From Escherichia phage vB_Ec-G1, in sequence record PQ433349.1: a stretch of DNA of 64,000 nt; one strand, 5' to 3'. The notes below the pieces were generated by a model. It saw nothing but the letters and a program-made list of their open reading frames with translations. It made no database searches and was not told where the DNA came from. The number at the start of each line of letters is the position of its first letter. Within the stretch, counting starts at the first letter, position 1. Both the position numbers and the translations under genes were made by a program. Shown here piece after piece: positions 24,936 to 39,138 of this stretch.

Positions 24936-25883
24936 CTACAAACTTTCAATAACCTGGCGTCGCAATTCGTTTGCATCTGCCAGATTGTAGTGTGTTCGAA
25001 CATGTTCAGCCAAGAACAAGCCACGATCTTCCCGATAGTTTGGATTGCGAAGAAGCTTAACAATTTCGTAATGCCATTCTGCTTTATTCTCTGCGTAAGC
25101 AACAGCACGAGCATCTACAGGGTTAAAATAAGGTAACACCTTAGAACAAACAATCGGAATACCTTTTGCCCCAGCTTCCAGGATTTTGAGATTACTTTTG
25201 CAATTATTAAAATCATTATCTACCAAAGGAGCTATAGCAATAGCATGACTTTCGTAAACATTCATGTAATTATCTAAATCTTTTACAGCAGCTTTATATT
25301 TGGCATTTGGTAAATTTCTGCGAATCTTAATCCACTCTTGTCCCGTGATGCTCTGCGATGCTTCATATCCCGCAATAGTAAGAAGTTCATCATCGAAAGT
25401 ATTAGAGACTAGTCGTAAATCGGGTTCGTGACTAGCACCGCCAGCCCATACAACAGGGGTACCGGATGAACGATCATTTGACAAAGTGAATTGTCCACTA
25501 TCAAAAGGAAGTGCATTTCGGATCACAACAACATTCCTATTTAAGTGACGGATCTTATATGCCAAGTATTCCGTAGTCACAATAACCACATCAGCAAGCT
25601 TAACCATAGCCACAATAGCATGAGTGTTTGACTCGTATAAACTTGCCAAATAATGCTCTGGATTAAGTTGGTAAAAATCATCTAAGTCTACAACAATCTT
25701 AACACCTTGGCGTTTCAAAGATAAAACGTATTCTGCACCTTTAGAGTGGATACGGTTAAACACAACAACATCTTTCTTAGGTTGAATATTATTGTTGTTA
25801 AATGGTATAACAATACGATGATAGTCACAACCGCTGTGAGGTTTTGCATCAATTTTTAGTTTAGACCATTTTTTATTTGACAT
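24936..25883 (-). CDS. glycosyltransferase (GT-B-like), paralog 2
   Basis: Shares CD(F/Y)HR(V/I)V(L/I)P N-terminus and KILEAGAKGIPIV motif with 23984..24928. Confidence 0.5.
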   Translation of the reverse strand: MSNKKWSKLKIDAKPHSGCDYHRIVIPFNNNNIQPKKDVVVFNRIHSKGAEYVLSLKRQGVKIVVDLDDFYQLNPEHYLASLYESNTHAIVAMVKLADVVIVTTEYLAYKIRHLNRNVVVIRNALPFDSGQFTLSNDRSSGTPVVWAGGASHEPDLRLVSNTFDDELLTIAGYEASQSITGQEWIKIRRNLPNAKYKAAVKDLDNYMNVYESHAIAIAPLVDNDFNNCKSNLKILEAGAKGIPIVCSKVLPYFNPVDARAVAYAENKAEWHYEIVKLLRNPNYREDRGLFLAEHVRTHYNLADANELRRQVIESL

Positions 25884-26556
25884 GTGCTAGTGCCTCCTCA
25901 TAAGAAAGTCGGATTTTCCCATTTTTAATATCCTCTAAAGATGCTTTGTATTCTTCCCAGTTAATACCAATAGCAGCTTCTTTCTCTTCTTTTGTCAGAT
26001 TAGCAAAAGGCATAGGATTGTTTCCAAAAACATCGTCTGGGTGGATATAAGCCATGATACGAAGTGGACAAGGTGTTGCCTGAATACCATGATTCAAACC
26101 AGCAGCTTTCAAACGGTGTCCCCATTCAGCATCTTCAAAACCATAACCGTGAGTGTAAGGGCGGAAATAACCCATCTTCTCAACAACGGCACGAGAATAC
26201 ATTGCAAATTGACACATTGCAAGTTCCCAGAGAATAACTTCTCCTTTGCTTCCAACAACTTTATCTTTGAAATACTCCGGCATACCAAAGAAATCCCATC
26301 CTCCAGAAACAGCCTGATCTACAAAGTATGTTTCCCATCCTTCCATGACTGGGTAGCAATCATCGTCAAAAATAAACCAATAATCATAACCTTCTTCATA
26401 AAACTGGTGCATAAGTTCATTCCTGGCATAAGCTACACCTTTACGATCTGGATCGTTGAATACTCGAAAATCTGCACGTGGATCTGTTACAAGGTAGTCT
26501 TTAAGTGGACGGACGCCTACAGTGATAACACCCACTCCGATTTTAATATTTTCCAT
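25873..26556 (-). CDS. putative glycosyltransferase (GT-A-like, tentative)
   Basis: 227 aa with acidic DDD motif (WFIFDDDCYP); tentative. Confidence 0.35.
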   Translation of the reverse strand: MENIKIGVGVITVGVRPLKDYLVTDPRADFRVFNDPDRKGVAYARNELMHQFYEEGYDYWFIFDDDCYPVMEGWETYFVDQAVSGGWDFFGMPEYFKDKVVGSKGEVILWELAMCQFAMYSRAVVEKMGYFRPYTHGYGFEDAEWGHRLKAAGLNHGIQATPCPLRIMAYIHPDDVFGNNPMPFANLTKEEKEAAIGINWEEYKASLEDIKNGKIRLSYEEALAHVK

Positions 26557-26564
26557 TATCTCTC

Positions 26565-27128
26565 CTAAATAGTTTTACTGTGATCGTGACAGTGTAATAA
26601 ATGATGTATAGACCGTTGAGGATTTGTTTGACCTAATCTGTAAATGTGAAACAGATACATTCCCCGCATCAATCCTAACCTCTTTCCTTTTTCATGTAAA
26701 GTGCGAGAGAAAATTAAGTCGAATTGGATAGATTTTTCTTCGAAAGGAATTTCATTCCACAACGATTTTCTAAAAAGCAAAAAGAAACCTGCCAGAGGTG
26801 TTCCGAAAGGAACTTCTTCAACACTCACTTTATGATATTCTCTTGCAATCTTAGCATATTCTATATGGTTTAGAATATCTGGATCATCGTTAATTTGGTT
26901 AGAGAAAAGCTGATAACCACTACCTAACCTGTTACAAGTTGCACCTATTACATCAAAAGGTGGGTTTGAAATAACAAGCTCTTCAAGCATAGATGGTTGA
27001 TCAGGCAGGAGGAACATTGTATCGGTATCTCTTAAGCACACCCAACTATCATCTGGAAGAACGGCAATAGCTTCATTGATAGCCTTGCCGATATTTCCTG
27101 TCAGATAGGGAGTAATATAATAAATCAT
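26565..27128 (-). CDS. hypothetical protein, possible nucleotide-sugar transferase
   Basis: 187 aa; CLRDTDTMF DxD-like motif; tentative. Confidence 0.35.
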   Translation of the reverse strand: MIYYITPYLTGNIGKAINEAIAVLPDDSWVCLRDTDTMFLLPDQPSMLEELVISNPPFDVIGATCNRLGSGYQLFSNQINDDPDILNHIEYAKIAREYHKVSVEEVPFGTPLAGFFLLFRKSLWNEIPFEEKSIQFDLIFSRTLHEKGKRLGLMRGMYLFHIYRLGQTNPQRSIHHLLHCHDHSKTI

Positions 27129-27592: not shown

Positions 27593-27891
27593 TCTACAGC
27601 ATCATGAGTCCTTGCAAAACGCTCCCACAGCACAGCATCTACTTTAAGAACCATACAAGGATAAATACTGTCGTTGATCATATCAATGCTATATTTATCT
27701 ACATCCTTTTCATCTTCCATAAACAAAGTAGCGTATGCTTCCAAATGTTTACGGGTGTAGTATACGTCCTCTTCGGTAAGACCGACAACCAGGTAACTTG
27801 CTACAACAACAGTATTATCTTCTTGCATTTTAACTCCCCTTTGGTAGATAGAAACCATGCACTTTATCTCGATAAACAAGACGCATATCAC
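27544..27891 (-). CDS. hypothetical protein
   Basis: Track ORF 115 aa. Confidence 0.4.
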   Translation of the reverse strand: MICVLFIEIKCMVSIYQRGVKMQEDNTVVVASYLVVGLTEEDVYYTRKHLEAYATLFMEDEKDVDKYSIDMINDSIYPCMVLKVDAVLWERFARTHDAVECSAVMSQNNILGEIH

Positions 27892-28351
27892 GCTCCCAGT
27901 GTGTCCTTATATTCCGTTTCTTGAAGTATAGAGCACCTTTAGTAACATCTAAAACAGACCGCAATTCAGGAAAATGTTTCTCTAAATAAAGTAAACGCTC
28001 CGCTATTGCTTTTGCTTCCTGCCACTTATCTTTCTCTGTTACGTTAAAAGTTTTCGCATATGAGAATTGCCCTTTCTGGAACAAGACTCCTCTGACTGTG
28101 TTAGGAAAGTAGGCATCATTTCTTCTATTGATTACCACATTCCCAACGGCATTCATTCCTTTTTTACCCAGACCGCGACCTTCTGCGTAAATTGCACAAG
28201 CTAATAGAATTTTATCATTATATTGCTTTGTACATTTGTGAACTACTTTAGCGGTTTTTACGTTTGCAGCTTCGGCTTTCGCCACAACAGGTGTAAATGT
28301 AAAAGCAGTTAAGGATAGTAACGCAACTGTTACAAAGTTTTTTATCAGCAA
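27830..28351 (-). CDS. secreted cell-wall hydrolase (SleB/CwlJ-like), candidate endolysin
   Basis: N-terminal signal peptide; AIYAEGRG...NVVINRRND...FQKGQFS; TTG start with AAGGAGG RBS. Confidence 0.6.
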   Translation of the reverse strand: MLIKNFVTVALLSLTAFTFTPVVAKAEAANVKTAKVVHKCTKQYNDKILLACAIYAEGRGLGKKGMNAVGNVVINRRNDAYFPNTVRGVLFQKGQFSYAKTFNVTEKDKWQEAKAIAERLLYLEKHFPELRSVLDVTKGALYFKKRNIRTHWERDMRLVYRDKVHGFYLPKGS

Positions 28352-28383
28352 ATTTTGCCTCCTTTTTAAGTTAACGAATTTCT

Positions 28384-28412
28384 AGTATAACACGATAGAG
28401 GCTTTATTGCAA
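28384..28412 (-). promoter_or_regulatory. sigma70-like promoter for the hydrolase gene
   Basis: On minus strand TTGCAA, 17-bp spacer, TATACT, just after a GC hairpin. Confidence 0.45.
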
Positions 28413-28450
28413 GAGGGGGATTTCTCCCCCTCAAAATCATTTGTTAATTA

Positions 28451-29053
28451 TTATGGACATTCATACCATTCTTTTTTACCACCGAAGGCCATCACCACAT
28501 CACAAATATCCAGACCAGCTTTGCCTACACCATATGCTTTCAGCTTCCATTCCCCATCTTCACGAACCAAGGAAGCCACGTGGCAGATTGTGTTGCCAGC
28601 TACTTCAGGAGCCAGGAAGTCAAAATCCAGAATTTCCACATTGCGCTCGGAGTCGAAGATTTTAAGCATACCTTCAGAAGCATGACCAAAACGTTTCAGA
28701 CCTGTATCATCATCAATGGTCAGAACAAAGGCAATCTCTTGTGCATCAGGGGAGATTTTAGCCAGAGTAATATCAATCTGCTCCATGCTGCCAGTTCCAT
28801 CACGAACATCGTCACCAGCGAAGGTAGAACGTTCAGGATCAAACTTGTTAGCATAGCAAACCAGATGACGTGCAGACAGCATTTCAGGATTGCCAGCGGC
28901 ATTGTGACGACAAACCAGTGCACTTACATCCAGATCCAGTTTAGAATCAGATTTCCAAGAGAATTCCAGGCGCAGTTCTTTCAGAGCCGGAGCAACTTTC
29001 TTCAGGGAAATTTTTTCGCTAGAGCCTTTTTTCAGGGAAATTTTATCAGTCAT
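28451..29053 (-). CDS. terD: TerD-domain protein
   Basis: 200 aa; N-terminal KISLKK strand and GDDVRDGTG...IAFVLTIDDD core typical of TerD family. Confidence 0.75.
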   Translation of the reverse strand: MTDKISLKKGSSEKISLKKVAPALKELRLEFSWKSDSKLDLDVSALVCRHNAAGNPEMLSARHLVCYANKFDPERSTFAGDDVRDGTGSMEQIDITLAKISPDAQEIAFVLTIDDDTGLKRFGHASEGMLKIFDSERNVEILDFDFLAPEVAGNTICHVASLVREDGEWKLKAYGVGKAGLDICDVVMAFGGKKEWYECP

Positions 29054-29068
29054 CTTTTGTCTCCTCTA

Positions 29069-29338
29069 TTATTTAAGTGTAATACCAGTTACAGTCAATT
29101 CTACTTCCAAAAGCTTAGATGTGTTTTGGATTGATACTAATTGTGCATGATGGTTTAGTTCTACAGCAGAATAATCATTTTCCCCATCGTCTACTTTTAA
29201 ATAAACAATGATTTCACTAAGGTCTAAACCATTTTCGTCAAATGCATTTTCATAGACGAAAGTATCTCCTACATCCAAATCTTTAATGGTAAGGCATCGT
29301 TTATTTACTTTTTGCTCATCAATTTCGAAGTTTAACAC
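29069..29338 (-). CDS. hypothetical protein, paralog of 30360..30638
   Basis: Shares DLDVGDTF...EVELTVTGITLK with the paralog. Confidence 0.45.
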   Translation of the reverse strand: MLNFEIDEQKVNKRCLTIKDLDVGDTFVYENAFDENGLDLSEIIVYLKVDDGENDYSAVELNHHAQLVSIQNTSKLLEVELTVTGITLK

Positions 29339-29567
29339 TTCTTCCTCCTAATGTTATCTCCGGTTTGTATATACGAAGAATTATAGCGTTTTCATTTTCT
29401 TTGTCAACCCATTCTTCATAATCAGGCCATACATGAATCTCTACTCTACTTACAATATCTTCCATTCGCACAGTCCCAATGAAATACTCTTTGAGACTGC
29501 GCATAATGAAAGCTTCTCTCTCACGCCAATAATTTTCTATGACTTGAGAGGCAAGCTCGTCGATCAT
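29319..29567 (-). CDS. hypothetical protein
   Basis: Track ORF 82 aa. Confidence 0.4.
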   Translation of the reverse strand: MIDELASQVIENYWREREAFIMRSLKEYFIGTVRMEDIVSRVEIHVWPDYEEWVDKENENAIILRIYKPEITLGGRSVKLRN

Positions 29568-30358
29568 TTTTTAGCACCTACTTTAACAACCCACTCTCCG
29601 AACTCTTCAGATAAGAGTTTGTCATAAAGCTCTGAATCTGTCAAGTCTAAATCTTTAATACCAATAAAACCAACATTATCATAAGCATTTGCCAGTTCTT
29701 TCAGGAAGCCAAACTTCTCATTACCAACGCCAACCATGAACCAATAAATAGGTTTATTCTTATTCTCTTCGATAAGACGACGAACAGCACTAGGATCACC
29801 ATTCTCACCATCCGTCTGGAAGAATACAACACCAGGGGTAACGTCAGCACCTGGTTCAGATACAGCTACAACTTTTTCACGCTCTACAGACACTGTTTCA
29901 GTTTTACCAAGCAGACGATTAAAGAAGCCTTTCTTTGGAGCCTCCTCTTGTACCACTTGTTTAGTGGTAATATATTTAGTAACAGTGCCAAAATACTCAT
30001 CGTAGATATCCGCCATTACAGGGGCGTAATTTGTTCCACCTCCGATACGAACATTACGCATACATTTACCAACATAGTCATCGTAAACATCTGCTGTTGC
30101 TGGAGTAAGCTCTTGGGAACTCGTATTGAAGGCCCACATATCAATTTGTTGATTATCGTCGAACAGCATACCAAAAGGAAGCAGTTTACCTACAAAATCA
30201 CTCACTACCCCACTAGAATATAGACCATGCATACTACCAGAAATATCTAGAGCACATGCTACACGAAGAACAATCTTACCTTCATTCAGGTTCTTATTCT
30301 TTTTCAGAGAGAAAGCAAGGTTTTCTTGACGTTTTTTCAGGCTGATTTTCTCGGACAT
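29564..30358 (-). CDS. vWA-domain protein (TerY-like)
   Basis: MIDAS motif DISGSM, GGGTN, TDGENGD; TerD-like KISLKK N-terminus. Confidence 0.7.
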   Translation of the reverse strand: MSEKISLKKRQENLAFSLKKNKNLNEGKIVLRVACALDISGSMHGLYSSGVVSDFVGKLLPFGMLFDDNQQIDMWAFNTSSQELTPATADVYDDYVGKCMRNVRIGGGTNYAPVMADIYDEYFGTVTKYITTKQVVQEEAPKKGFFNRLLGKTETVSVEREKVVAVSEPGADVTPGVVFFQTDGENGDPSAVRRLIEENKNKPIYWFMVGVGNEKFGFLKELANAYDNVGFIGIKDLDLTDSELYDKLLSEEFGEWVVKVGAKK

Positions 30359-30359
30359 A

Positions 30360-30638
30360 TTATTTCTCCTTCTTAAGTGTGATATTGGTAACTTCTAAAT
30401 CTACTTCCACCATATTTGTATCTGGTGGGATGCAATGAGTATAGCCTCGTTGTGCTAGTGATCCATTAATACAGATCGCACTGTTTGTGGAATTTTTAAT
30501 GAACACCAAGTTACGGTAGGTATCCAACCCTGCGTCTTCATAGGCATCATAATACATGAATGTGGCCCCTACGTCAAGATCTTCGAAAGCAATAGGTAAA
30601 TCCTGACTTTTTTCTTCTTGAATATTGAATCTAAACAC
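30360..30638 (-). CDS. hypothetical protein, paralog of 29069..29338
   Basis: Probable GTG start with AGGAGG RBS (track ORF extends to 30704); shares DLDVGATF...EVDLEVTNITLKK. Confidence 0.4.
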   Translation of the reverse strand: MFRFNIQEEKSQDLPIAFEDLDVGATFMYYDAYEDAGLDTYRNLVFIKNSTNSAICINGSLAQRGYTHCIPPDTNMVEVDLEVTNITLKKEK

Positions 30639-31194
30639 GCATACCTCCTCTACCAATTTTGAAGCCCAAATCGTAAGCTTCCTTAGTGATCTTTTGTAAC
30701 TCACTTATAGGAAGTGTTACAAGAGGATCATCTTCTTCAATTTCCATCTTGTCATCTTCTGTTTCAATGAGAGTATTATGCACTTTGTGATAAGGGTTGT
30801 CAACACGTTTAAACTTATTCTTTTCTGTGCTGAAAAAACAGTCTGGATCTTCTTCACCATCACCCCAACCTTGGTTAGGATCTCCGTCAGATTGTTCTGT
30901 AGGGATTTCACCTGTAAAGTACTCTTCCAGCACCATAGCAATACCGTCCCTTGGATTTGAGGAATGCATTAAATCACAAACCTTACCCCAATCCATAGCC
31001 CATTCGAACCGTTCACGAATGCCATTTTCATCCTCCTTCCCAGAGAAAACACAACCATAACTATCATAGTTGCCATACATCTCTTCAATAACAACACCGT
31101 CCTTCAAAAGAAAGAGGTAGCAAGGTGATCCGTCGAAAGAAGTAGAAAGGGCAGCTTTGCCCGATTCTTTGCACAAAAAGCTAAAACAACCCAT
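30631..31194 (-). CDS. hypothetical acidic protein
   Basis: Track ORF 187 aa. Confidence 0.5.
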   Translation of the reverse strand: MGCFSFLCKESGKAALSTSFDGSPCYLFLLKDGVVIEEMYGNYDSYGCVFSGKEDENGIRERFEWAMDWGKVCDLMHSSNPRDGIAMVLEEYFTGEIPTEQSDGDPNQGWGDGEEDPDCFFSTEKNKFKRVDNPYHKVHNTLIETEDDKMEIEEDDPLVTLPISELQKITKEAYDLGFKIGRGGMRV

Positions 31195-31592
31195 TACAAA
31201 CCCTCCTTCAGATTATCAAGAGCTACAGTGGTTTCACAAAATTCTCCATAAGCTTTATGATGTTCCAGAAAAGCTTCGGGTCCACCCCAGTCATTATCTT
31301 GTGTATTCCAGCCATCAATAAAAGCATCTTCAATGATTGTGATCAGTTCCTGTCGAGTCAACGTAATGGTATCAGGTTTCTGCGTAGTTTCCACACGGAA
31401 CCCTGGTTCTTCATAAAAACCTTTAGTTACAATGGATTCTAACTCTTCTGCATCACAGAGGAAGTAGCCACAAAGATAACACCAACCGTCATCATCTTTC
31501 ATTACTTCATAAACTTCACCACTTGCTAACTTGGTGAAAAGAGTAGGGTCTGTTACTGTAAGTTTTAAAAGAATACCTGTTGGATTATACAT
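31194..31592 (-). CDS. hypothetical protein
   Basis: Track ORF 132 aa; start overlaps upstream small ORF (ATGTATAA). Confidence 0.5.
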   Translation of the reverse strand: MYNPTGILLKLTVTDPTLFTKLASGEVYEVMKDDDGWCYLCGYFLCDAEELESIVTKGFYEEPGFRVETTQKPDTITLTRQELITIIEDAFIDGWNTQDNDWGGPEAFLEHHKAYGEFCETTVALDNLKEGL

Positions 31593-31758
31593 CTTCTTCC
31601 TCCTCTAAAATATGGAACCCGTAATTACAATAATCCTGAAAGGTTTCGTGTGCAAGATCTTCTATATCCTCTTGAGACATATCATCTTCAATTTCGATAT
31701 CCACAACCTCATTGCATCCACACCAAGCAGTTTCAATATTCACTCGTAATATTTTCAT
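31585..31758 (-). CDS. small Cys-containing protein (about 57 aa, not in ORF track)
   Basis: GAGGAGGAGGAG RBS directly before ATG; coupled to both neighbours. Confidence 0.4.
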   Translation of the reverse strand: MKILRVNIETAWCGCNEVVDIEIEDDMSQEDIEDLAHETFQDYCNYGFHILEEEEDV

Positions 31759-31955
31759 TACTCCTCCTCCTCATTGAAGTCAATATCTGCAAGGAGTTCG
31801 AATTTACGGAAGTTACGACAACCTTCATAAATATAACAATCACGACAAACTGCTAGAACACTTGGGGGATATATGCCTCCCATCGGTGCGAATCGTTTTT
31901 CGTCATCATAACGGACACCAATGTCTTCATCAATTATATAGATACGGATTCTCAT
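31758..31955 (-). CDS. small Cys-rich protein
   Basis: Track ORF 65 aa; CRDCYIYEGC; acidic C-terminus. Confidence 0.4.
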   Translation of the reverse strand: MRIRIYIIDEDIGVRYDDEKRFAPMGGIYPPSVLAVCRDCYIYEGCRNFRKFELLADIDFNEEEE

Positions 31956-33064
31956 TTACCAAGCCCTCGTTTCACAGCAGCTACCATCCCGTCTTCCAGA
32001 GATTGAACTTCATTAATATAATCAACACGAGCAGCACGGGCTTCCGTATTGATGCGGTTAGTTTCTTCCAACATCTTAACCAAGTTTTCCTGATCGTGAC
32101 GCAGAGTTTCAATATCCAACACTTGACGGTTAGCCAGTGCTGCTGCTTCGATCTGATTCTGTGTAGCAAGATCGCTACCCAGTTTAATTGCCAGGTTAAA
32201 TTCATCAAGAACGTTATTCTGCGTCTCTGCTGCTTTCATTTGACGTAAGCTCTCGATATACATTGAGAAGTTAGCAGAGTAAGCAGGAATAACATTATTT
32301 ACTATGTTACGCGCAGATCGCATTAAGCTTGCAGAAACTTTTTGCATACCTTGTACACGCGGTCCCATTTGGACACACAGTAGGCGCAATGCTTTTAAAT
32401 CTGCAATACGAATCTCCAGAAGATCCAAAGTATCTCGGATCACTTGTCGCTGTTCTACTGCATCTTCTGGAAGAGCAGCCAAAGCTTGTTCTTCTTTTTC
32501 ATAGGTTGCTGTTAGAAGCTGCATATCTCGGTTCAAACTTGCAGCATATTGTCCAATAGCTTGATGTAGCTTTTCAAGATATACCAAGGAATCTTCTTCT
32601 TTGCGAATATCCATTTGAAGGTTCTTTACCAACTCTTCAATACGGTTATTAACATTATCAAACTCCCCAAACAGGTCTTCTTTCATACCCATAACTTTTT
32701 TAATGAGTTTAGTAATACCCTTGCTTTGTTTAATAGAGTTTGGATCAAGTTGTTTTGCCTGTTTAATCAAAGCTGTGAGTCGTTCACTCATCTGATCGCC
32801 TTGATTACTACGTTGATGTTTTAATACCTCGGCATTCAAGGAACGCAAGGTTGTTCCTGCCTCTGCCCCAATCTCTTCGATCTCTTGTCGGGTCATAGAA
32901 GGCAAAACTGGAACTTCTTGCGGTGCCGCTGGTGCATAAACAGGACTGGCATCTAACACGCTTGGAGCGAATACAGATTTACTTGCATCTGTTGTTGCAG
33001 CAAATACGCTCATTTCAGGCTTCTTCTGACCACCAGTAACTGCTTTTAAAAATGGACTTGTCAT
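31952..33064 (-). CDS. telA: TelA-like toxic-anion-resistance protein
   Basis: 370 aa, mostly helical/coiled; size and Ter context consistent with TelA/KlaA family (from memory). Confidence 0.55.
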   Translation of the reverse strand: MTSPFLKAVTGGQKKPEMSVFAATTDASKSVFAPSVLDASPVYAPAAPQEVPVLPSMTRQEIEEIGAEAGTTLRSLNAEVLKHQRSNQGDQMSERLTALIKQAKQLDPNSIKQSKGITKLIKKVMGMKEDLFGEFDNVNNRIEELVKNLQMDIRKEEDSLVYLEKLHQAIGQYAASLNRDMQLLTATYEKEEQALAALPEDAVEQRQVIRDTLDLLEIRIADLKALRLLCVQMGPRVQGMQKVSASLMRSARNIVNNVIPAYSANFSMYIESLRQMKAAETQNNVLDEFNLAIKLGSDLATQNQIEAAALANRQVLDIETLRHDQENLVKMLEETNRINTEARAARVDYINEVQSLEDGMVAAVKRGLGK

Positions 33065-33651
33065 TCTTCATTCTCCTCTTCTGCATCTCTTATATATGGT
33101 GAAACACCGTACTCTTTAGCTACTTTAACCCAATCGTCCCATTTATACAACCATAATTTTCCTTCGGTCCCTTCTTTATCTGATTTCAACCACATATTAG
33201 GTTGCTTACCTGGGTACATGCGATTAGGTTTACGATTATAACCTCTAACACATCTTGTCGCAAACCTATCTACCAGAACAAGAACATATTTATATTCGTG
33301 GTTCAACGGCTCTTTGGAAGTGGCTTTAGGATTAGCCCCTAATTCTGCTGCCAGTTTTTGCCAATGAGCACCGTGCCTACTAAACTTACCCATACAACCA
33401 TCAATAGCATGAGCAATTTCGTGCTTCATTGTATCCACGATCATATCTCTTGTAGAGTTCTTATGCAAGTGCCAATTTACAACAACAATTTTATCTCGGT
33501 AGTTGCACCAACCGAAAGAGTTATTCACTTTGTTTCTAACACAAGCTTTATATCCTGCTTCACGTAACATGTTGTAGTAAACAGGAAAATCTTCTTTTAT
33601 TTCCTGCATCACTTCCCACCACAAGAGTTGCAAGTCTCTCTCGGTATACAT
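33061..33651 (-). CDS. SprT-like zinc metallopeptidase domain protein
   Basis: HEIAHAIDGCMGKFSRHGAHW (HExxH ... HGxxW). Confidence 0.55.
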   Translation of the reverse strand: MYTERDLQLLWWEVMQEIKEDFPVYYNMLREAGYKACVRNKVNNSFGWCNYRDKIVVVNWHLHKNSTRDMIVDTMKHEIAHAIDGCMGKFSRHGAHWQKLAAELGANPKATSKEPLNHEYKYVLVLVDRFATRCVRGYNRKPNRMYPGKQPNMWLKSDKEGTEGKLWLYKWDDWVKVAKEYGVSPYIRDAEEENEE

Positions 33652-33654
33652 AAC

Positions 33655-34248
33655 TTACACCTTAAAAGTGAAATGCGTGGTCGTGGTTTCAAAATCAGGA
33701 CCAGATAAACGTGCACTGAAATCTGAAATATTTGTAATTAAAAAGCTTTTATGCATACCTAACACAGCTACGCTTTCAATATCTTCTACTAACATTTCAA
33801 TCATGTTAGAAACATGGCTGAACGTAGAGTTTTGTTTTTTGATGGTGTAGAAAGAAAGATTACCACCTGCTGTATAAGATACCTCTTCAAAATCTTTAAT
33901 CGTATATTGTGTGCCATCAGTAAAGAAAATGGTAGCTTTATTAGTAGCACGTTTCTTGTTTTTTGGTCCTTTTTTACGTTTACTGCGAGTAGGCAAACCG
34001 TTTGGGAACACCATAGCTACAAATTCTTCAGCAGAAACCTCCTTACCGAAATCATAACCATAAGAAACAGCGTCTATAAACTCGTCATCTTCATTTTTAA
34101 AATAATGGAAATAGGGCCAATTTGAGAGATTATCGAGCATCTTATGCTCGTCCACAGCAGAGAATGTATCCCTCAAAGCGCGTGTGATTTGCAAAGCATT
34201 AGGCAACCTTTTAACACCTACGATGGAAGTACGAATAGAAATTGTCAT
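33655..34248 (-). CDS. hypothetical protein
   Basis: Track ORF 197 aa. Confidence 0.45.
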   Translation of the reverse strand: MTISIRTSIVGVKRLPNALQITRALRDTFSAVDEHKMLDNLSNWPYFHYFKNEDDEFIDAVSYGYDFGKEVSAEEFVAMVFPNGLPTRSKRKKGPKNKKRATNKATIFFTDGTQYTIKDFEEVSYTAGGNLSFYTIKKQNSTFSHVSNMIEMLVEDIESVAVLGMHKSFLITNISDFSARLSGPDFETTTTHFTFKV

Positions 34249-34262
34249 TGTTTTTCTCCTTA

Positions 34263-34700
34263 TTAACGTCGCTTGCTACGAGATGAACTCTTTTTACTTA
34301 AAGGGCTATTGTAAGATTTACGAGTTGTATAGCTACTATTTGTTTTAAAAGTTTGTCTCGGCTTTTCATAAGTTTTTATCTCTTGTTTAGGCTTACCATA
34401 AAAATTAGTTTTCGGTTTAGGTGTATTATAATGCTTATTAATAATCGTTCTGTTATCGTTATAATCCCCACTGTTACGATTACTACCACCACTCATCATA
34501 TGCCCTAACAACATACCTGTAGCAAACTCACCAACACCGCTACTACTAGAACCGCCACCATTGTTGATAATAGTTGTATCTCCGTCAGATCCTTGTTGAG
34601 CGTATTGTTGAGGAGGTTGTTGGTATTGTGCAGGATTTGTTTCATCCTCACAAGCTGTTAAAAAGATACAACCAATTAAAATCAGGGCTAGTTTTTTCAT
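34263..34700 (-). CDS. lipoprotein
   Basis: MKKLALILIGCIFLTAC lipobox then Gln/Gly/Ser-rich low-complexity region; start at internal Met of track ORF. Confidence 0.5.
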   Translation of the reverse strand: MKKLALILIGCIFLTACEDETNPAQYQQPPQQYAQQGSDGDTTIINNGGGSSSSGVGEFATGMLLGHMMSGGSNRNSGDYNDNRTIINKHYNTPKPKTNFYGKPKQEIKTYEKPRQTFKTNSSYTTRKSYNSPLSKKSSSRSKRR

Positions 34701-34883
34701 ATTTGCTTTCCTCATTTTGACTATTAATACATCTGTGTTTGAAATCTCCAGAGAAGCAATAAAGTTGCTCTCCATCTCGGTATAAACTCACTTTACTGCC
34801 GTTGATTACGCTTGTCAATACAAAAATTACAACAAACAACCCTATTGCAAAACAAATATTTTCAAACACAATCAACAAGTATT

Positions 34884-35234
34884 TCATTTTAAAAATACCT
34901 CATCATCAGTTTCATTATCCCAGAAGAACAAATCCCAACCATTCGGATCATTCCATTTGGCTGCTGGAGAAGTCCATATTTGTTCGATATCAATATTCAA
35001 AACTTCACCGTTTCGTTTTGAAACAGCTTTAGTTAATTCCCAACGAGATACAGGCTCTACTTCCCCTGAACCACTCCCACAACAAGCTACCACGTTAGGA
35101 GGCAAATTAATTGGATCTTTGGTCACGATCATAACGCTTACCCCAGGGTAAACTTTTGAAAGATAATCTAAAACGTAATCCACATCACCAGATAAATCCC
35201 AAACAAGTTCTTGAATTTCATCAAAATTATTCAT
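34884..35234 (-). CDS. hypothetical protein
   Basis: Track ORF 116 aa. Confidence 0.45.
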   Translation of the reverse strand: MNNFDEIQELVWDLSGDVDYVLDYLSKVYPGVSVMIVTKDPINLPPNVVACCGSGSGEVEPVSRWELTKAVSKRNGEVLNIDIEQIWTSPAAKWNDPNGWDLFFWDNETDDEVFLK

Positions 35235-35243
35235 AAGTCTCTC

Positions 35244-35270
35244 CTATAAAATAGCCTCCCGAAGGAGGCT
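35244..35270 (-). terminator. intrinsic terminator after terC
   Basis: agcctcc cgaa ggaggct hairpin then T-rich run on minus strand. Confidence 0.5.
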
Positions 35271-35276
35271 CATCTA

Positions 35277-36251
35277 TTAAACAGCAGCTTCTTCTTTTTC
35301 AGGGAAGATAAAGCTTGCAATAACACCAAGAGCTAATGTGCCTAGAACAATCATCAGACTTACGTTAGGGGAAATATCATGCGGGAGGAATGACCACTTG
35401 GCATGAAGTGTTTCACCGAACGGGTGATACATAAGTTTAGCACCGACAAATACCAGAACCACAGCAACAGCTTTCTCTAAGTGAACCAGATATTTCACAG
35501 CCACACTTAACACAAAGAAAAGTGCACGTAAACCAAGAACAGCCATCAGCATTGCAGAATAAACTAGCAGAGGTTCTTGTGTCACACCGATCACAGCCGG
35601 AACTGAATCAAAAGAGAAGACAATATCTGTAAGCTCAATAACAAACACACAAAGAAGAGCAGGAGTTGCATATTTAATACCATTCTTAATGGTGATGAAC
35701 TTTTCACCATCCAGTGCATTGTGCACAGGCAGAACTTTACCTACTAAACGAACAGCCCAATGCTTAGAGTAATCAATATCCTCTTCTTCGTCACCACCTT
35801 TGATGATAGCCACGGCAGACCAAGCTACAATCAAACCGAACAACACTTGGACCGACCAATGAAGGTTAAACAAAGCGGTCCCTGCTGCAACAAAAATACC
35901 TCGGAAGACAATGGCTCCTGCAATCCCCCAAAGTAAAATCTTATGTTGGAGATGTGTGCTCTTAATTCCAAAGCTTGCAAAAATTGCCATGAACACCATC
36001 AGGTTATCTACAGAAAGACTCTTTTCCAACACATAGCCACTTAGGAAAAGCGCGGCAAACTCTTTACCATGTTCTACCCAAATGAATGCGTAATATCCTA
36101 AAGCTAAAGCAATCCAAAAAACAGACCAAAGCAAAGCAGATTTAATTCCAATTTCTTTATTCTCTTTATGACCAAAGAAATCAATACCAATAGACAATGC
36201 TAAAATACCAACTAAAACAACTACATCAATAATGGGGAAACCAAGTTGCAT
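35277..36251 (-). CDS. terC: TerC-family integral membrane protein
   Basis: Multiple TM helices; signature EKSLSVDN and ELTDIVFSFDSVPAV. Confidence 0.85.
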   Translation of the reverse strand: MQLGFPIIDVVVLVGILALSIGIDFFGHKENKEIGIKSALLWSVFWIALALGYYAFIWVEHGKEFAALFLSGYVLEKSLSVDNLMVFMAIFASFGIKSTHLQHKILLWGIAGAIVFRGIFVAAGTALFNLHWSVQVLFGLIVAWSAVAIIKGGDEEEDIDYSKHWAVRLVGKVLPVHNALDGEKFITIKNGIKYATPALLCVFVIELTDIVFSFDSVPAVIGVTQEPLLVYSAMLMAVLGLRALFFVLSVAVKYLVHLEKAVAVVLVFVGAKLMYHPFGETLHAKWSFLPHDISPNVSLMIVLGTLALGVIASFIFPEKEEAAV

Positions 36252-36332
36252 TATTTTCTCCTTTCTCTTTGCGGGGAACCACTCCCCGCCTCATGTGATA
36301 CATCTTACTCTATTCTAAAACTTTGTCAACAC

Positions 36333-36554
36333 TTATTTTGAAGAACTTGAGGAAAAGATCCCACGTAGTACAGCCATGATAAATGCCACACACACCACAG
36401 TCCAGAAGGTGACAGGAACAGTGATATCTGTGTGACCCATCATTTCAACAACGTAGTTATAAGCCAGCAGCAGAAGCCATGCTGGAATCATACTAATCAG
36501 AAAAGCAATAACAAACACAATAATCACTGCAAGAATACCTGCTAAAACGCCCAT
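36333..36554 (-). CDS. small membrane protein
   Basis: 73 aa, two predicted TM helices. Confidence 0.5.
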   Translation of the reverse strand: MGVLAGILAVIIVFVIAFLISMIPAWLLLLAYNYVVEMMGHTDITVPVTFWTVVCVAFIMAVLRGIFSSSSSK

Positions 36555-36567
36555 AATATTTCTCCTC

Positions 36568-37044
36568 TTAAAGTTTATAAATAGTCACATCGTGACCTGT
36601 TTTTACTAAAGTTTCTTCAATCATCACTTCAATGATAGCCCAATTACCTCCTGCCAACCCTGCTCCAATCATAGGTAAGCCGATCTTACATTTTTGGTCA
36701 CGGAGAAGCAAATCATTAGCCATAGCTATTAGTGCATCGTACAAGGCATCATAGTCCAACTGACGACCTTTAGCATTGTATCCGTAACGGTATTGCCCGT
36801 ACAGATTATATACCAAAGGGTCTGATTGTTCGTCTGGCACCCCTAAACTAAAACAACCCAGTTTACTTTGATCACCAGCCATTGTGTCTAAGTCTGCTGC
36901 ATATGCGTAAGGAAATGCTCGTTTGATTTGTGGGGCAATACCTGCCCCCATATTACACATACAGTTGCAACAATGAGCAATAACAGTTACTTCACCTGCT
37001 TTAGCGGCATCAATAAGATTACCTGTTTTCATTTTAAGCATTTT
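36568..37044 (-). CDS. macro-domain protein (ADP-ribose binding/hydrolase)
   Basis: VIAHCCNCMCNMGAGIA and IGLPMIGAGLAGG resemble macro-domain motifs; start at internal Met of track ORF. Confidence 0.55.
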   Translation of the reverse strand, partial: KMLKMKTGNLIDAAKAGEVTVIAHCCNCMCNMGAGIAPQIKRAFPYAYAADLDTMAGDQSKLGCFSLGVPDEQSDPLVYNLYGQYRYGYNAKGRQLDYDALYDALIAMANDLLLRDQKCKIGLPMIGAGLAGGNWAIIEVMIEETLVKTGHDVTIYKL

Positions 37045-37054
37045 TAGCCCCTTA

Positions 37055-37882
37055 TTACAGAATGTGCTGTTTTGTGTAACGATCCAAGAATTCAAAGTTT
37101 TCAGCATACTTTGAAATTCGGTTGTAACCTTCTCCCAAGCATCCAAAGAAAAGTTGCTCTACATAGTAGTGTGGCAATTGACTAAGAATGATTTTGAAGT
37201 CTTCATGATTTTGGCCCATAAGATATTTAATAGGACGAACAAGACACTGTGCATCACGTTCTTCATTAATCATTTTAACAAACGCTTCTGGTGTATTAAT
37301 GTAGTTAAAATTCAGTTTAGCTTCGGTATCTGCTTGATTACCTTCATATTTTGCAAAATACAGGAAGTAAACATCATTTTTAACTTGATTTTCATCAAGA
37401 ATCTCAATCAGTTTGTCTTCATGCGTTCCAGTGATATTTACATCATCAATGAATACAAGCTTCTTATCACCCCAGAATTCTTTGTTGCAGTAGAATGTAT
37501 CCCCATCAATAAGTTTCTTACGACTAGCTTTATCCAAGAAACCATAATCGTTGATATAGCTAACTTTACGATGAATAATGTCCAGTTCTGCTGAACGACC
37601 TTGATCATATTGTGATTGCAACATGTTAAAGTAATTAATAAAATGATCTGTCATCATTGTTGCAGCATTATGCACATGGTTGTAAGGAGAAGGAATGATA
37701 ACAAATTGTTCCCCAATATGTTTCATTGCCACTTGAGCAAAAAACTGAAGTGCCAATTCTTTACCCATACGACGCGCGGCTTGGTTACTACCAAATTTCA
37801 ATTTTGAATAATCTTGGATATCAAAAGTAGCAGTTTCCAGGTCATCAAATTTATTTGCAAAAATTTGAGTTTGATTACGCAT
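37055..37882 (-). CDS. phosphoribosyltransferase (PRTase) domain protein
   Basis: PRPP-binding motif KKLVFIDDVNITGTHEDK. Confidence 0.65.
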   Translation of the reverse strand: MRNQTQIFANKFDDLETATFDIQDYSKLKFGSNQAARRMGKELALQFFAQVAMKHIGEQFVIIPSPYNHVHNAATMMTDHFINYFNMLQSQYDQGRSAELDIIHRKVSYINDYGFLDKASRKKLIDGDTFYCNKEFWGDKKLVFIDDVNITGTHEDKLIEILDENQVKNDVYFLYFAKYEGNQADTEAKLNFNYINTPEAFVKMINEERDAQCLVRPIKYLMGQNHEDFKIILSQLPHYYVEQLFFGCLGEGYNRISKYAENFEFLDRYTKQHIL

Positions 37883-38531
37883 TTACAATTTCTCCTCTTT
37901 TAAGTTTCTCTAGTAAGTCGTTAGGGTTCTTAATATGACAGAAGTTAAATCCTAAGTCAACACATTTTCCATCATATTCTTCACTATCGCCTACGTGCAA
38001 TACTTCGTGCCCTAACAGAGGGATCGGAGAATACGTGAGCGTGCGAGCAAAGAATCGCGGATCTGGTTTACAAAGTAAAGCTTCATCCGAGAAATGGGTG
38101 AACTCAAAACAATTCCAACTATCAAACTTACAAGCACGACGCAGGATATCCCCTGATATAAAGTTGGTATTGCTCTTAATACTCAAATCATAACGTCCCG
38201 AAAGATACAGCAAGTACATCGGCAGATCCACGGCTACGTGTGGTGGAAACTTAAGGAACCACTGTTCACACTCGAAACGAAGCTTTGCAGACTTCCAAGG
38301 TGTTATCCCAAGTTCAGAACCAAGTCTTTCCCAGGCGTATGCTGCACACTCGGCTTTGCCTTGAAGTGCTGCATTATCCAGTTCCTTTTTGATCTTCTTA
38401 TAAGCTGCTCTTGCTTCCACTTCCGTAATATCTCCATATTTTGCGATAGTCCAGGCTCGCATGTCTGCGTAATTGGAGTTTGCTGTGATCAGTGTGTTCC
38501 ATACATCAAAAGAGATATGTTTAATAGTCAT
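37875..38531 (-). CDS. HAD-superfamily hydrolase
   Basis: Motif I FDVWNTL, KPDPRFF, motif IV HVGDSEEYD. Confidence 0.6.
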   Translation of the reverse strand: MTIKHISFDVWNTLITANSNYADMRAWTIAKYGDITEVEARAAYKKIKKELDNAALQGKAECAAYAWERLGSELGITPWKSAKLRFECEQWFLKFPPHVAVDLPMYLLYLSGRYDLSIKSNTNFISGDILRRACKFDSWNCFEFTHFSDEALLCKPDPRFFARTLTYSPIPLLGHEVLHVGDSEEYDGKCVDLGFNFCHIKNPNDLLEKLKRGEIVNA

Positions 38532-38532
38532 A

Positions 38533-39138
38533 TTAAGCCCACCATGCGTCTAAGTTAAGATTACTGTCCACTACCACTTGTTCTATGTGGTAGCCTTTTA
38601 TCTGTATCCCACTGTTCAAGAGCATATCATACGCTTCATTGAAACGCAACTTATCTTCTGCGGAATATAAGCGAGCATTATAAAATCGGTAATCAATTTC
38701 TTCAGCATTAGAAGAAATACGGAAGAAGTTTGTTTCTACTTCGGGATCACTTGCTGAAGTCTTAATGTGAACTTCTCCATAATTTTCTTTACTTAGATCC
38801 ATGAAAAGAACACAGGCAACATGTTTAAACATTCGTTCCAGTTTGTAACGAACAACATTGAAACCTGCATTCTCAAGTTTTTCTACACACTGCAACATTA
38901 AAGTAGTGTCGAGATCGCTTTGATACTTTGTTAACATACGATCACGTTGAGACTTTGTATCCCGATGTAAATCAATTGTTGTGCATTTGGCACCAATAAT
39001 CTTAGCTGCTTTCATCAACTCTTCAGAACTAACGTTAGATAAAGTAAGATGAAAATGGGCTTTCCACACTTTTTTAGCAGGGACACCAAAAGATTTATCC
39101 CCACTATTCGGCATGTTGACTACTACACTATGTTGCAT
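38533..39138 (-). CDS. hypothetical protein
   Basis: Track ORF 201 aa. Confidence 0.45.
   Translation of the reverse strand: MQHSVVVNMPNSGDKSFGVPAKKVWKAHFHLTLSNVSSEELMKAAKIIGAKCTTIDLHRDTKSQRDRMLTKYQSDLDTTLMLQCVEKLENAGFNVVRYKLERMFKHVACVLFMDLSKENYGEVHIKTSASDPEVETNFFRISSNAEEIDYRFYNARLYSAEDKLRFNEAYDMLLNSGIQIKGYHIEQVVVDSNLNLDAWWA

Follow-up and report, generated by a model that had tools for sequence, protein, structure and literature searches.

Gene content of the block

The 64,000-nucleotide window from Escherichia phage vB_Ec-G1 (PQ433349.1) belongs to the genus Phapecoctavirus and is 98.9% identical to phAPEC8 when the whole block is compared. The block (positions 27830-39138), with all features on the minus strand, is located in the early/middle, leftward replication arm of this virulent phAPEC8-like myovirus. 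It adjoins the anaerobic ribonucleotide reductase genes (NrdDG). A sequence-only reading had described a single Ter-like assembly here; every gene that it named is present on that strand, and the cluster is confirmed with Pfam and NCBIfam support. The block is nevertheless a mosaic, since its macrodomain family is widespread, g01 and the SprT-like gene are missing in phi92, and the SleB-like gene appears to be separately transcribed. Its heart is a reduced form of the Ter "hub" known from bacteria, composed of TerC/Alx, TelA, a TerF-type vWA protein and one TerD. Phage-specific small partners flank this hub (two paralogues of about 90 residues, a lipoprotein and small membrane proteins), and five products of the block are envelope targeted.

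A phage Ter cluster is not new, with a phi92 report in 2012 (as cited in PMC11162368) and a discussion of phages in 2021. Ter clusters in jumbo and "smaller tailed phages" are described in PMC7824862, where superinfection exclusion was proposed, and clusters were published for phiPsa374 (PMC9796965) and phiKp34 (PMC8386662). In the literature, the phAPEC8/phi92 locus is called an "alx-like ter cluster". The sequence-only reading that the role of Ter in phages is not established agrees with published statements (PMC11162368, PMC9796965).

The Ter core

Profile searches support the TerC, TelA and TerD assignments. The TerC/Alx-family integral membrane protein (35277..36251; Pfam TerC, 3e-40) has nine predicted spans in a hydropathy scan, scores 319 bits against the NCBIfam TerC/Alx subfamily TIGR03718 (cut-off 246; 2.6e-95) and shares about 50% identity with TerC/Alx proteins of bacteria. 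The TelA-like protein (31952..33064; Pfam TelA, 3.2e-33) is found in 222 phage records. The vWA protein (29564..30358) had been taken to be TerY-like, but it is of the TerF-C-terminal type (vWA-TerF-like, PF10138, 1.6e-37); its gene occurs in 209 phage records, and its MIDAS motif is intact, the DxSxS...T...D residues being kept in every phage lineage aligned.

The TerD-domain protein (28451..29053; Pfam, 3.2e-28) matches the solved TerD structures 2KXT (1.5e-15) and 3IBZ (3e-14). In the phage alignment, SMEQ replaces the acidic DDE that ends the canonical Ca-loop motif, in this subfamily only. TerD and the vWA protein indeed share the KISLKK-type N-terminus noticed earlier (M-x-x-KISLKK in both). 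The block encodes one TerD-domain protein and no TerB, and the PADLOC defence models gave no match to the Ter proteins.

The HAD-PRTase pair

The ComF-like, Ter-associated phosphoribosyltransferase PRTase_3 (37055..37882) matches PF15610 (2.2e-41) over its full length (9-264 of 264 profile positions). Its PRPP loop, VFIDDVNITGTHE, is conserved in the alignment, and the family is present in 156 phage records. The HAD-superfamily hydrolase (37875..38531), called an obligate partner of PRTase_3, had been recognized from the sequence; its family membership holds through NCBIfam HAD-IA families and motifs conserved in the alignment, while its Pfam score of 21 bits is under the Pfam cut-off. Motif I reads FDVWNTL, in which the nucleophile Asp is kept and the Asp+2 position is an invariant Trp.

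In phages, metagenomic contigs and Rhizobium/Sinorhizobium plasmids, PRTase_3 immediately follows the HAD gene. The pair and the Ter core occur together within genomes, sometimes unlinked, and by genus counts the PRTase_3 phages are nested within the vWA phages, even with the genes 13-160 kb apart. PRTase_3 and the unusual HAD protein probably make a ribosylated small molecule from a base and PRPP; as the HAD protein lacks the Asp+2 typical of phosphatases, a "nucleoside" product is uncertain.

Macrodomain, g01 and SprT-like genes

The macrodomain protein (36568..37041; Pfam Macro, 5.6e-5) had been identified correctly but with too long a reading frame, whose upstream extension is unused in annotated relatives. 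It matches the PADLOC DarG model (3.1e-10) and the PDB structures 5E3B, TARG1 and TaqDarG 5M31, and is 37% identical to T4 Tk.4 (E 6e-22), which a 2025 preprint named AdfM, an anti-DarTG2 factor (bioRxiv 10.1101/2025.11.20.689424). The family, including Tk.4/AdfM, is present in 2,991 phage records and common in phages without Ter genes. We infer from this homology a putative Tk.4/AdfM-like ADP-ribose eraser that may counter DarTG2, a function separate from the Ter hub.

The 201-residue protein g01 (38533..39138; phrog_22504) has no Pfam match. Its AlphaFold model (pLDDT 82) folds into two ferredoxin-like halves, for which neither 2H-phosphoesterases nor any other known fold gave a convincing match. 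PADLOC HMMs labelled AbiEi match it over the full length (4.7e-13), but the label is not corroborated: all 43 homologues are phage-encoded or in phage surroundings, with no AbiEii gene adjacent. Absent from phi92, g01 is found in Rheinheimera phages distant from any Ter genes, and is peripheral to the Ter set. The SprT-like zinc metallopeptidase gene (33061..33651; Pfam SprT-like, 4.2e-9; HEIAH motif) is present in Klebsiella phage 05F01 and absent from the sister genus phi92.

Small proteins and lipoprotein

Between the macrodomain and TerC genes lies a 73-residue protein with two predicted membrane spans (36333..36554; phrog_16065), which has a phi92 homologue with 60% identity. The 116-residue protein (34884..35234; phrog_27498) has no counterpart found in phi92. 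The earlier gene list overlooked a 79-residue protein with an N-terminal membrane span (34648..34887), a homologue of phi92 gp181, whose gene overlaps the start of the lipoprotein gene. The lipoprotein itself had been noticed, with a different gene extent: the real gene (34263..34700) starts MKKLALILIGCIFLTAC and encodes 145 residues, the length annotated in relatives, with the lipobox LTAC and a low-complexity, Lys-rich C-terminus. Homologues are found in phi92 and 05F01, and the same two phages conserve the C-terminal part of the 197-residue protein (33655..34248; phrog_27550; gp179 in phi92).

Three small ORFs of 65, 57 and 132 residues (31194..31955) vary among relatives, with EF1-1 lacking window positions 31363-31584. 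The conserved 187-residue protein (30631..31194; phrog_14928) is 76% identical to its phi92 counterpart (dN/dS 0.13); its single-sequence AlphaFold model has a pLDDT of 35. The small proteins A (30360..30638) and B (29069..29338), both phrog_11278, are true paralogues flanking the vWA gene, as had been proposed (33% identity over 89 residues, E 3e-13). In each of the three Stephanstirmvirinae genera, a copy of paralogue A precedes vWA, and the 82-residue protein (29319..29567; phrog_22387) is specific to Phapecoctavirus.

Promoter-like sites and the SleB-like hydrolase

Sigma-70-type promoter-like sites, called as consensus matches only, precede three of the core genes. The site for TerC (36302..36329; TTGACA-16-TAAGAT) is followed by a 5'UTR hairpin and has an equivalent ahead of the TerC-like gene in 05F01; a terminator-like hairpin is found 3' of TerC (35253..35270), and no riboswitch, Mn type included, was found ahead of the gene. 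The site before paralogue A and vWA (30775..30803; TTGACA-17-CATAAT, 11/12) is conserved in phi92 (L003 10915-10943), and the site before paralogue B and TerD (29380..29407; TTGACA-16-TATAAT) is a perfect consensus match. The region holds 55 promoter-like sites against 42 +/- 7 in shuffled controls, a total not above the controls.

The SleB/Hydrolase_2-type peptidoglycan hydrolase (27830..28351; Pfam Hydrolase_2, SleB-like, 1.8e-17) is predicted to be secreted, with a signal peptide ending AKA/EA. The 100-nt gap between the TerD and SleB-like genes holds a hairpin and a promoter-like site, and the latter gene is, as its sequence reads, a separate transcription unit and predicted second wall hydrolase, the genus also having a GH24 lysozyme (PMC10793346).

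Distribution and conservation

In the synteny comparison, the four-gene core (TelA, vWA, TerC and TerD) recurs without interruption in at least six phage lineages that are unrelated to each other. It is found in Rhizobium, Caulobacter, Pseudomonas (Otagovirus), Xanthomonas and Acinetobacter phages, and also in metagenomic contigs; the same four genes side by side across unrelated phages argue for a grouping beyond chance. Every sequenced member of the subfamily, roughly 131-133 in all, retains the Ter genes (about 133 records for a core helicase, about 131 for TelA, 132 for vWA and 131 for PRTase). The Ter set is under purifying selection, with dN/dS of 0.09-0.27 against phi92 (TelA 0.09, TerD 0.12).

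Possible function of the Ter genes

The likeliest role, which we propose tentatively, is to shield the envelope of the infected cell early on from rival phages, colicins and ion stress. Shortly after infection, the Ter genes would be transcribed by host RNA polymerase via strong sigma-70 promoters. TerC would enter the inner membrane, with TelA, vWA and TerD assembling on its cytoplasmic face and the PRTase/HAD product as a possible ligand or signal for this assembly. The envelope and ion balance would be hardened until scheduled lysis, so that neither superinfecting phages, nor pore-forming colicins, nor metal or envelope stress could spoil the infection. We infer this phenotype as a phage counterpart to what plasmid ter operons confer, namely phage inhibition and colicin resistance. 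In those operons, insertions in terC, terD or terZ abolish both; the minimal unit is reported to be TerC-TerD, and in Klebsiella, plaques are larger when terC is deleted (PMC12054061). For phage Ter systems, a role of this kind was put forward by Aravind's group (PMC7824862).

Envelope protection is suggested by this precedent and proposal, the contiguity of the core, the nesting of PRTase_3, the universality in the subfamily and the purifying selection. It is also consistent with the intact MIDAS motif, PRPP loop and HAD nucleophile, the five envelope-targeted products, and near-perfect sigma-70 matches before TerC, vWA and TerD that are partly conserved in phi92 and 05F01. It is weakened by the missing TerB and extra TerD paralogues, the altered TerD loop, the missing HAD Asp+2, the consensus-only promoters and the lack of Ter matches among the PADLOC defence models.

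A role in metal and ion homeostasis that would serve the metabolism of the phage itself, and not competition, seems rather unlikely. TerC/Alx would export or deliver Mn2+ (or Zn2+/Ca2+), and TerD, vWA and TelA would sense or buffer metal, giving the right levels for phage enzymes or the metalation of an exported phage protein. The phage TerC falls in the Alx subfamily; Alx is described as exporting Mn2+, and the TerC proteins of Bacillus as metal chaperones for export (PMC10197570, PMC12096827). In Klebsiella, terC gives resistance to Zn/Mn, the MIDAS site of the phage vWA protein is intact, and the block is next to the NrdDG genes and a secreted hydrolase. However, that adjacency is limited to one subfamily and absent in other lineages, a Mn riboswitch was not found ahead of TerC, and the PRTase/HAD co-occurrence is left unexplained.

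Unlikely, too, is a counter-defence function, in which the Ter hub, macrodomain and g01 would together form an anti-defence island, the hub shielding the membrane from depolarising or perforating Abi effectors and/or the PRTase/HAD product disrupting immune nucleotide signalling or nucleotide/NAD depletion. The macrodomain is homologous to AdfM, but its frequency in phages without Ter genes suggests that the adjacency may be incidental, and the Abi antitoxin label of the HMMs matching g01 is not corroborated. NAD-salvage genes repeatedly adjoin Ter or PRTase/HAD genes in other phages, and Ter operons protect against pore-forming colicins.

Less likely again are unrelated neighbours in a permissive region, each acting alone, the "cluster" reflecting shared ancestry of one subfamily. 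Here the genera differ in g01, SprT and several small genes, a TerC cassette has passed between genera by exchange, the PRTase/HAD pair sits apart from the core in 05F01, Rhizobium phages and XaC1, and Rhizobium plasmids carry PRTase/HAD without Ter genes; the contiguous core in unrelated lineages and the genome-level co-occurrence of PRTase_3 argue against it. A role in lysis timing or wall remodelling, with the Ter proteins controlling the SleB-like hydrolase or keeping the envelope stable in its presence up to lysis, is very improbable: TerD-SleB adjacency is kept in three genera and a cleavable signal peptide would let the hydrolase act before the holin, but it appears separately transcribed, other lineages have no such hydrolase beside the core, and the genus has its conventional lysozyme.

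Comparison with known systems

The bacterial Ter hub of Anantharaman, Iyer and Aravind (2012), to the extent that PMC7824862 relates it, comprises the same four families plus PRTase_3 and its HAD partner. Against that account, the phage set is without TerB, ATP-grasp, lyase, kinase and phosphatase, has only one TerD, whose Ca loop is modified, and phage-specific small partners, and its promoter-like sites look like constitutive sigma-70 sites.

The terZABCDEF operon (IncHI2 plasmids, E. coli O157) confers tellurite resistance, phage inhibition and colicin resistance. The phage has homologues of TerC, TerD and the TerF vWA domain, with one TerD-domain protein instead of five and no TerB; as its TerD lacks the acidic Ca-loop end, the terZABCDE phenotypes may not transfer. 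TelA, included in the phage set, belongs in bacteria to another operon (telAB/kilA). The macrodomain and T4 Tk.4/AdfM share PHROG family 335 (DarG/TARG1-type); unlike Tk.4, the gene described here adjoins PRTase/HAD.

Contiguous TelA, vWA, TerC (or DUF475) and TerD are found in phiPsa374 (Otagovirus), Caulobacter/Brevundimonas jumbo phages, Rhizobium Kleczkowskaviridae and Acinetobacter ME3, with PRTase and HAD genes also present in the ME3, Rhizobium and Brevundimonas phages. These Ter proteins are 20-35% identical to those described here, the TerDs retain the canonical GDN...DDE loop, and the accessory genes differ, with no SleB, SprT or small paralogues.

For work on the unsolved Ter mechanism, the phAPEC8-like phages are a tractable system. 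In phi92 the genes come in the same order, and its PRTase, TerC, TelA, vWA and TerD proteins are 65-81% identical to those of the block; the phage described here additionally has g01, the SprT-like and 116-residue genes and, between vWA and TerD, the duplicated small gene and the 82-residue gene with the perfect promoter match.

Layout of the block and its relatives

Judged by sequence comparison, the minus-strand block at 27830-39138 is a mosaic of three layers, which are a Ter core (TelA, a TerF-type vWA protein, TerC and TerD), a pair composed of a HAD hydrolase and a PRTase_3 protein, and lineage-specific passengers. The sequence-only reading had proposed a Ter-like gene cluster here, and profile searches back every domain it named, including the HAD hydrolase, whose Pfam match is weak (21 bits, under the cut-off) and whose assignment was confirmed by alignment. 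The observation is confirmed, while its interpretation as one cluster is partly supported, the block being a mosaic. The macrodomain and lipoprotein genes it listed are present, but their true spans are 36568-37041 and 34263-34700, and the gene for a 79-aa membrane protein (34648-34887) had been overlooked.

The block is covered over its whole length by Escherichia phage phAPEC8 with 98.9% identity, and about 60 further Phapecoctavirus genomes are 96-99% identical to it. These relatives belong to the subfamily Stephanstirmvirinae and are virulent myoviruses with genomes of about 150 kb. In the long minus-strand array that holds the block, a helicase and ribonucleotide reductases are followed by NrdD/NrdG and then by glycosyltransferases and a primase/helicase, so that the block belongs to the replication and nucleotide-metabolism arm of the genome. 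The glycosyltransferase gene run (25873-27128 and beyond) lies directly downstream of the block, before the primase/helicase, and comprises four genes in annotated relatives. Several records, including MG065650, OP562383 and OR584014, are labelled as Campylobacter, Acinetobacter or Pseudomonas phages, yet are 90-99% identical over the block to E. coli Phapecoctavirus or Justusliebigvirus phages, and their host labels look doubtful on this sequence basis. More widely, we compared the block with phi92 (a Justusliebigvirus from the sister genus), Klebsiella phage 05F01, phiPsa374, Caulobacter phage J4, Rhizobium phages, Xanthomonas phage XaC1, Acinetobacter phage ME3, one Asteriusvirus and two metagenomic contigs.

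The Ter hub

TelA, the TerF-type vWA protein, TerC (or the related DUF475) and TerD are encoded contiguously in at least six unrelated lineages. TelA matches its Pfam profile at 3.2e-33 over positions 13-327 of 332. TerC matches Pfam at 3e-40 and the NCBIfam TerC/Alx subfamily TIGR03718 with 319 bits against a curated cut-off of 246, and nine hydrophobic segments are predicted for it. The vWA protein, previously taken to be TerY-like, is instead of the TerF C-terminal type (PF10138, vWA-TerF-like, 1.6e-37), and its MIDAS residues DISGS...GGT...TDG are kept in every aligned lineage. The TerD-domain protein (Pfam TerD, 3.2e-28) matches the solved TerD structure 2KXT in the PDB at 1.5e-15; the TerDs of Stephanstirmvirinae have lost the acidic DDE closing the canonical Ca loop, whereas the other aligned phage TerDs retain it. 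The PADLOC models gave no match to the vWA, TerD, TelA or TerC proteins.

The two small proteins noticed around the vWA gene are indeed paralogues, with 33% identity (E 3e-13) and a common assignment to phrog_11278. One (30360-30638) precedes the vWA gene and the other (29069-29338) precedes TerD. The KISLKK-type start described for TerD and vWA is found in both as M-x-x-KISLKK, and a unit of promoter, phrog_11278 gene and M-x-x-KISLKK protein occurs twice within 29069-30803. phi92 and 05F01 carry the first copy only, and the second therefore stems from a duplication specific to Phapecoctavirus. A recent gene conversion as origin of the KISLKK motif was rejected, since the nucleotides agree at only 22 of 30 positions and the likeness lies at the peptide level. 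A relation of the small paralogues to TerD was likewise rejected (hhalign probability 0.2%). For the 187-aa protein of the block, the single-sequence structure model is unusable (pLDDT 35).

The HAD-PRTase_3 pair

The PRTase matches PRTase_3 (PF15610) end to end at 2.2e-41, and its PRPP loop VFIDDVNITGTHE is conserved and intact in the alignment. In the HAD protein (37875-38531) and its homologues at the comparison loci L003 (phi92), L008, L011, L012 and L023, motif I is an invariant DxWxT and not the canonical DxDxT. The Asp nucleophile is retained, as are the Ser/Thr, the Lys and the acidic motif, but throughout the PRTase_3-linked family a Trp invariably takes the place of the Asp+2 that is typical of phosphatases. 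The general acid/base Asp of a typical HAD phosphatase is therefore missing, and simple phosphomonoesterase chemistry is not assured.

The HAD gene lies directly upstream of the PRTase gene in all genomes compared. In the window, phi92 and the metagenomic contigs the pair adjoins the core, and the distance between the two is 13 kb in 05F01, about 87 kb in the Rhizobium phages and about 160 kb for XaC1. Counted by genus, phages with the PRTase (156 records) form a subset nested within those with vWA (209 of 50,697 records), which argues for a functional tie independent of adjacency. The pair is also found without a Ter core on Rhizobium and Sinorhizobium megaplasmids, and is therefore a self-contained enzyme module.

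In several unrelated phages, NAD-salvage genes adjoin Ter or PRTase/HAD genes (comparison loci L012, 13029-14612; L007, 5862-6425; L005, 695-4594; L022, 5010-7341). These neighbours include PnuC with a NadR-like gene, NMNAT/Nudix, NAMPT with a PRPP-synthase-like gene, and NAD synthetase.

Passenger genes

The first gene of the block (g01, 38533-39138, minus strand, 201 aa), the SprT-like gene (Pfam, 4.2e-9), a 116-aa gene and an 82-aa gene are missing in phi92. Within a 132-aa ORF, a stretch of 222 bp (31363-31584) is missing in the close relative EF1-1, pointing to a small gene that is dispensable or variable. At 34263-34887, the gene for the 79-aa protein, which has a membrane span at its N-terminus, runs into the beginning of the lipoprotein gene, a layout reminiscent of overlapped spanin pairs, though it is far from the lysozyme gene.

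The macrodomain protein (Pfam Macro, 5.6e-5) shows 37% identity to T4 Tk.4 (E 6e-22) and has a PHROG family in common with it. It is closest to the DarG/TARG1 type, matching PADLOC DarG at 3.1e-10 as well as PDB entry 5M31 and TARG1, and its family comprises 2,991 phage records. T4 tk.4, since renamed AdfM, is required on DarTG2-expressing hosts, which was shown for T4 only (bioRxiv 10.1101/2025.11.20.689424). The simplest reading of these similarities is a putative counter-defence enzyme that would stand beside the Ter genes by happenstance, although ME3 and phiPsa374 likewise have macro genes in the vicinity of their Ter genes. In Vibrio phages, PRPP-synthase-like genes adjoin Tk.4-like macro genes.

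The secreted cell wall hydrolase is SleB-like (Pfam Hydrolase_2, 1.8e-17, with a partial match to TIGR02869) and carries a predicted cleavable signal peptide. A GH24 lysozyme is also present in the genus, making the SleB-like protein a second wall hydrolase (PMC10793346). Among the other lineages compared, none has a hydrolase of this type beside the Ter core.

In PADLOC, g01 matches PDLC02277 (4.7e-13) and PDLC02279 (4.4e-12), HMMs labelled AbiEi. An identity as AbiEi was not corroborated, with no match to Pfam AbiEi and no sequence match to the solved structures, an AlphaFold model composed of two ferredoxin-like halves and no winged-helix N-domain, and a phage-like context without an AbiEii neighbour in every inspected contig among those of the 43 proteins retrieved by profile search. 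A 2H phosphoesterase, which would be marked by a 2H fold with two HxT/S motifs, had been suspected but was rejected, the model showing only the two ferredoxin-like halves. The genome scan for g01 matched only phage-derived contigs, and the confident AlphaFold model has no meaningful structural neighbour. The family is a phage-only orphan, invariant in its HxHxT and ExHxK motifs and predicted to have a tandem ferredoxin-like fold. As an orphan antitoxin-like gene, g01 may act in counter-defence.

Conservation and expression signals

In the subfamily, the records number about 133 for the core helicase, about 131 for TelA, 132 for vWA and 131 for PRTase; with counts so near that of the helicase, the three genes are universal in Stephanstirmvirinae. 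The dN/dS values against phi92 are 0.09-0.27 and are rough because dS is near saturation. The Ter set in the subfamily is, as estimated from these alignments, under purifying selection.

A promoter-like site with a perfect sigma-70 consensus (29407-29380, minus strand) precedes the second phrog_11278 paralogue and TerD, and an 11/12 sigma-70 promoter-like site (30803-30775, minus strand), which is kept in phi92, precedes the first paralogue and vWA. A hairpin and a promoter-like site also lie between TerD and the SleB-like hydrolase gene. The TerC unit (35253-36329, minus strand) has its own promoter-like site, a 5'UTR hairpin and a terminator-like hairpin; an Rfam search upstream of TerC gave no riboswitch match. 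In the Phapecoctavirus SKA64, TerC is 94.8% identical to phi92 TerC and 72.8% to that of the window, and its flanks are of the Phapecoctavirus type (about 96-100%). The unit, which corresponds to 10448-11422 in comparison locus L002 and 6227-7204 in L003 (phi92), behaves as an exchangeable cassette.

Possible function

The role of Ter proteins, which are widespread among pathogens, is a long-standing question; links have been drawn to resistance against tellurite, colicins, phages and metals, to gut fitness and to virulence. By analogy and comparative genomics, the block would most likely be expressed early from host-type promoters and shield the envelope and ion balance of the infected cell from rival phages, colicins and stress, an assignment that we hold tentatively, at somewhat below even chances. 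Metal homeostasis is a live rival, and deletion of terC in Klebsiella leads to Zn/Mn sensitivity as well as larger plaques (PMC12054061). Counter-defence is another, to be weighed with the readings of the macrodomain and g01. An assembly of unrelated neighbours is also a live rival, to be set against the nesting of PRTase carriers within vWA carriers and beside the free-standing pair on the megaplasmids.

A further proposal, which we consider unlikely, is that the Ter hub and the HAD-PRTase_3 pair form one ligand-controlled system, where a putative novel riboside made by the enzyme pair would switch a membrane complex of TerC, TelA, vWA and TerD, giving resistance to membrane-targeting host immunity and rival phages. 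The recurrent NAD-salvage neighbours hint that this riboside may be nicotinamide-riboside-like. If true, ligand control would for the first time define a mechanism behind the 40-year-old Ter enigma, in lytic phages that infect K-12. Relatives growing on E. coli K-12 are publicly available (BASEL Bas60-62), which brings the deletion of single genes, assays of exclusion and metabolomics within reach.

Relation to known Ter systems

The presence of a Ter cluster in such phages is already known and is not news. An "alx-like ter cluster" is described for phi92, with its function given as unknown (PMC11162368), and Ter clusters were described in phiPsa374 (PMC9796965) and phiKp34 (PMC8386662). Iyer et al. 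2021 reported Ter systems in jumbo phages and certain related smaller tailed phages, proposing that PRTase/HAD synthesises a signal, TerD acts as the sensor, TerC is the part in the membrane, and TelA and vWA form a structure beneath the membrane that is used against superinfecting phages (PMC7824862). In the literature we found no experimental test of a phage Ter gene or a PRTase_3/HAD pair. Tellurite resistance, phage inhibition and colicin resistance are phenotypes known for bacterial ter operons only, and insertions in bacterial terC, terD and terZ abolish the latter two (PMC12054061).

The TerY-P defence triad combines a TerY vWA protein with a PP2C phosphatase and a Ser/Thr kinase, whereas the vWA of the block is TerF-type, and Pfam scans of the block proteins showed neither the kinase nor the phosphatase domain. 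The canonical terZABCDEF operon encodes TerB and several TerD paralogues (TerZ, A, D, E and F); in contrast, a Pfam scan of all block proteins except the 79-aa ORF (34648-34887) gave one TerD match and no TerB match. The minimal unit reported in bacteria is TerC-TerD (PMC12054061). The subfamily version is minimal and universally kept, being composed of one TerC, one TerD, TelA, one vWA and a two-enzyme metabolite module.
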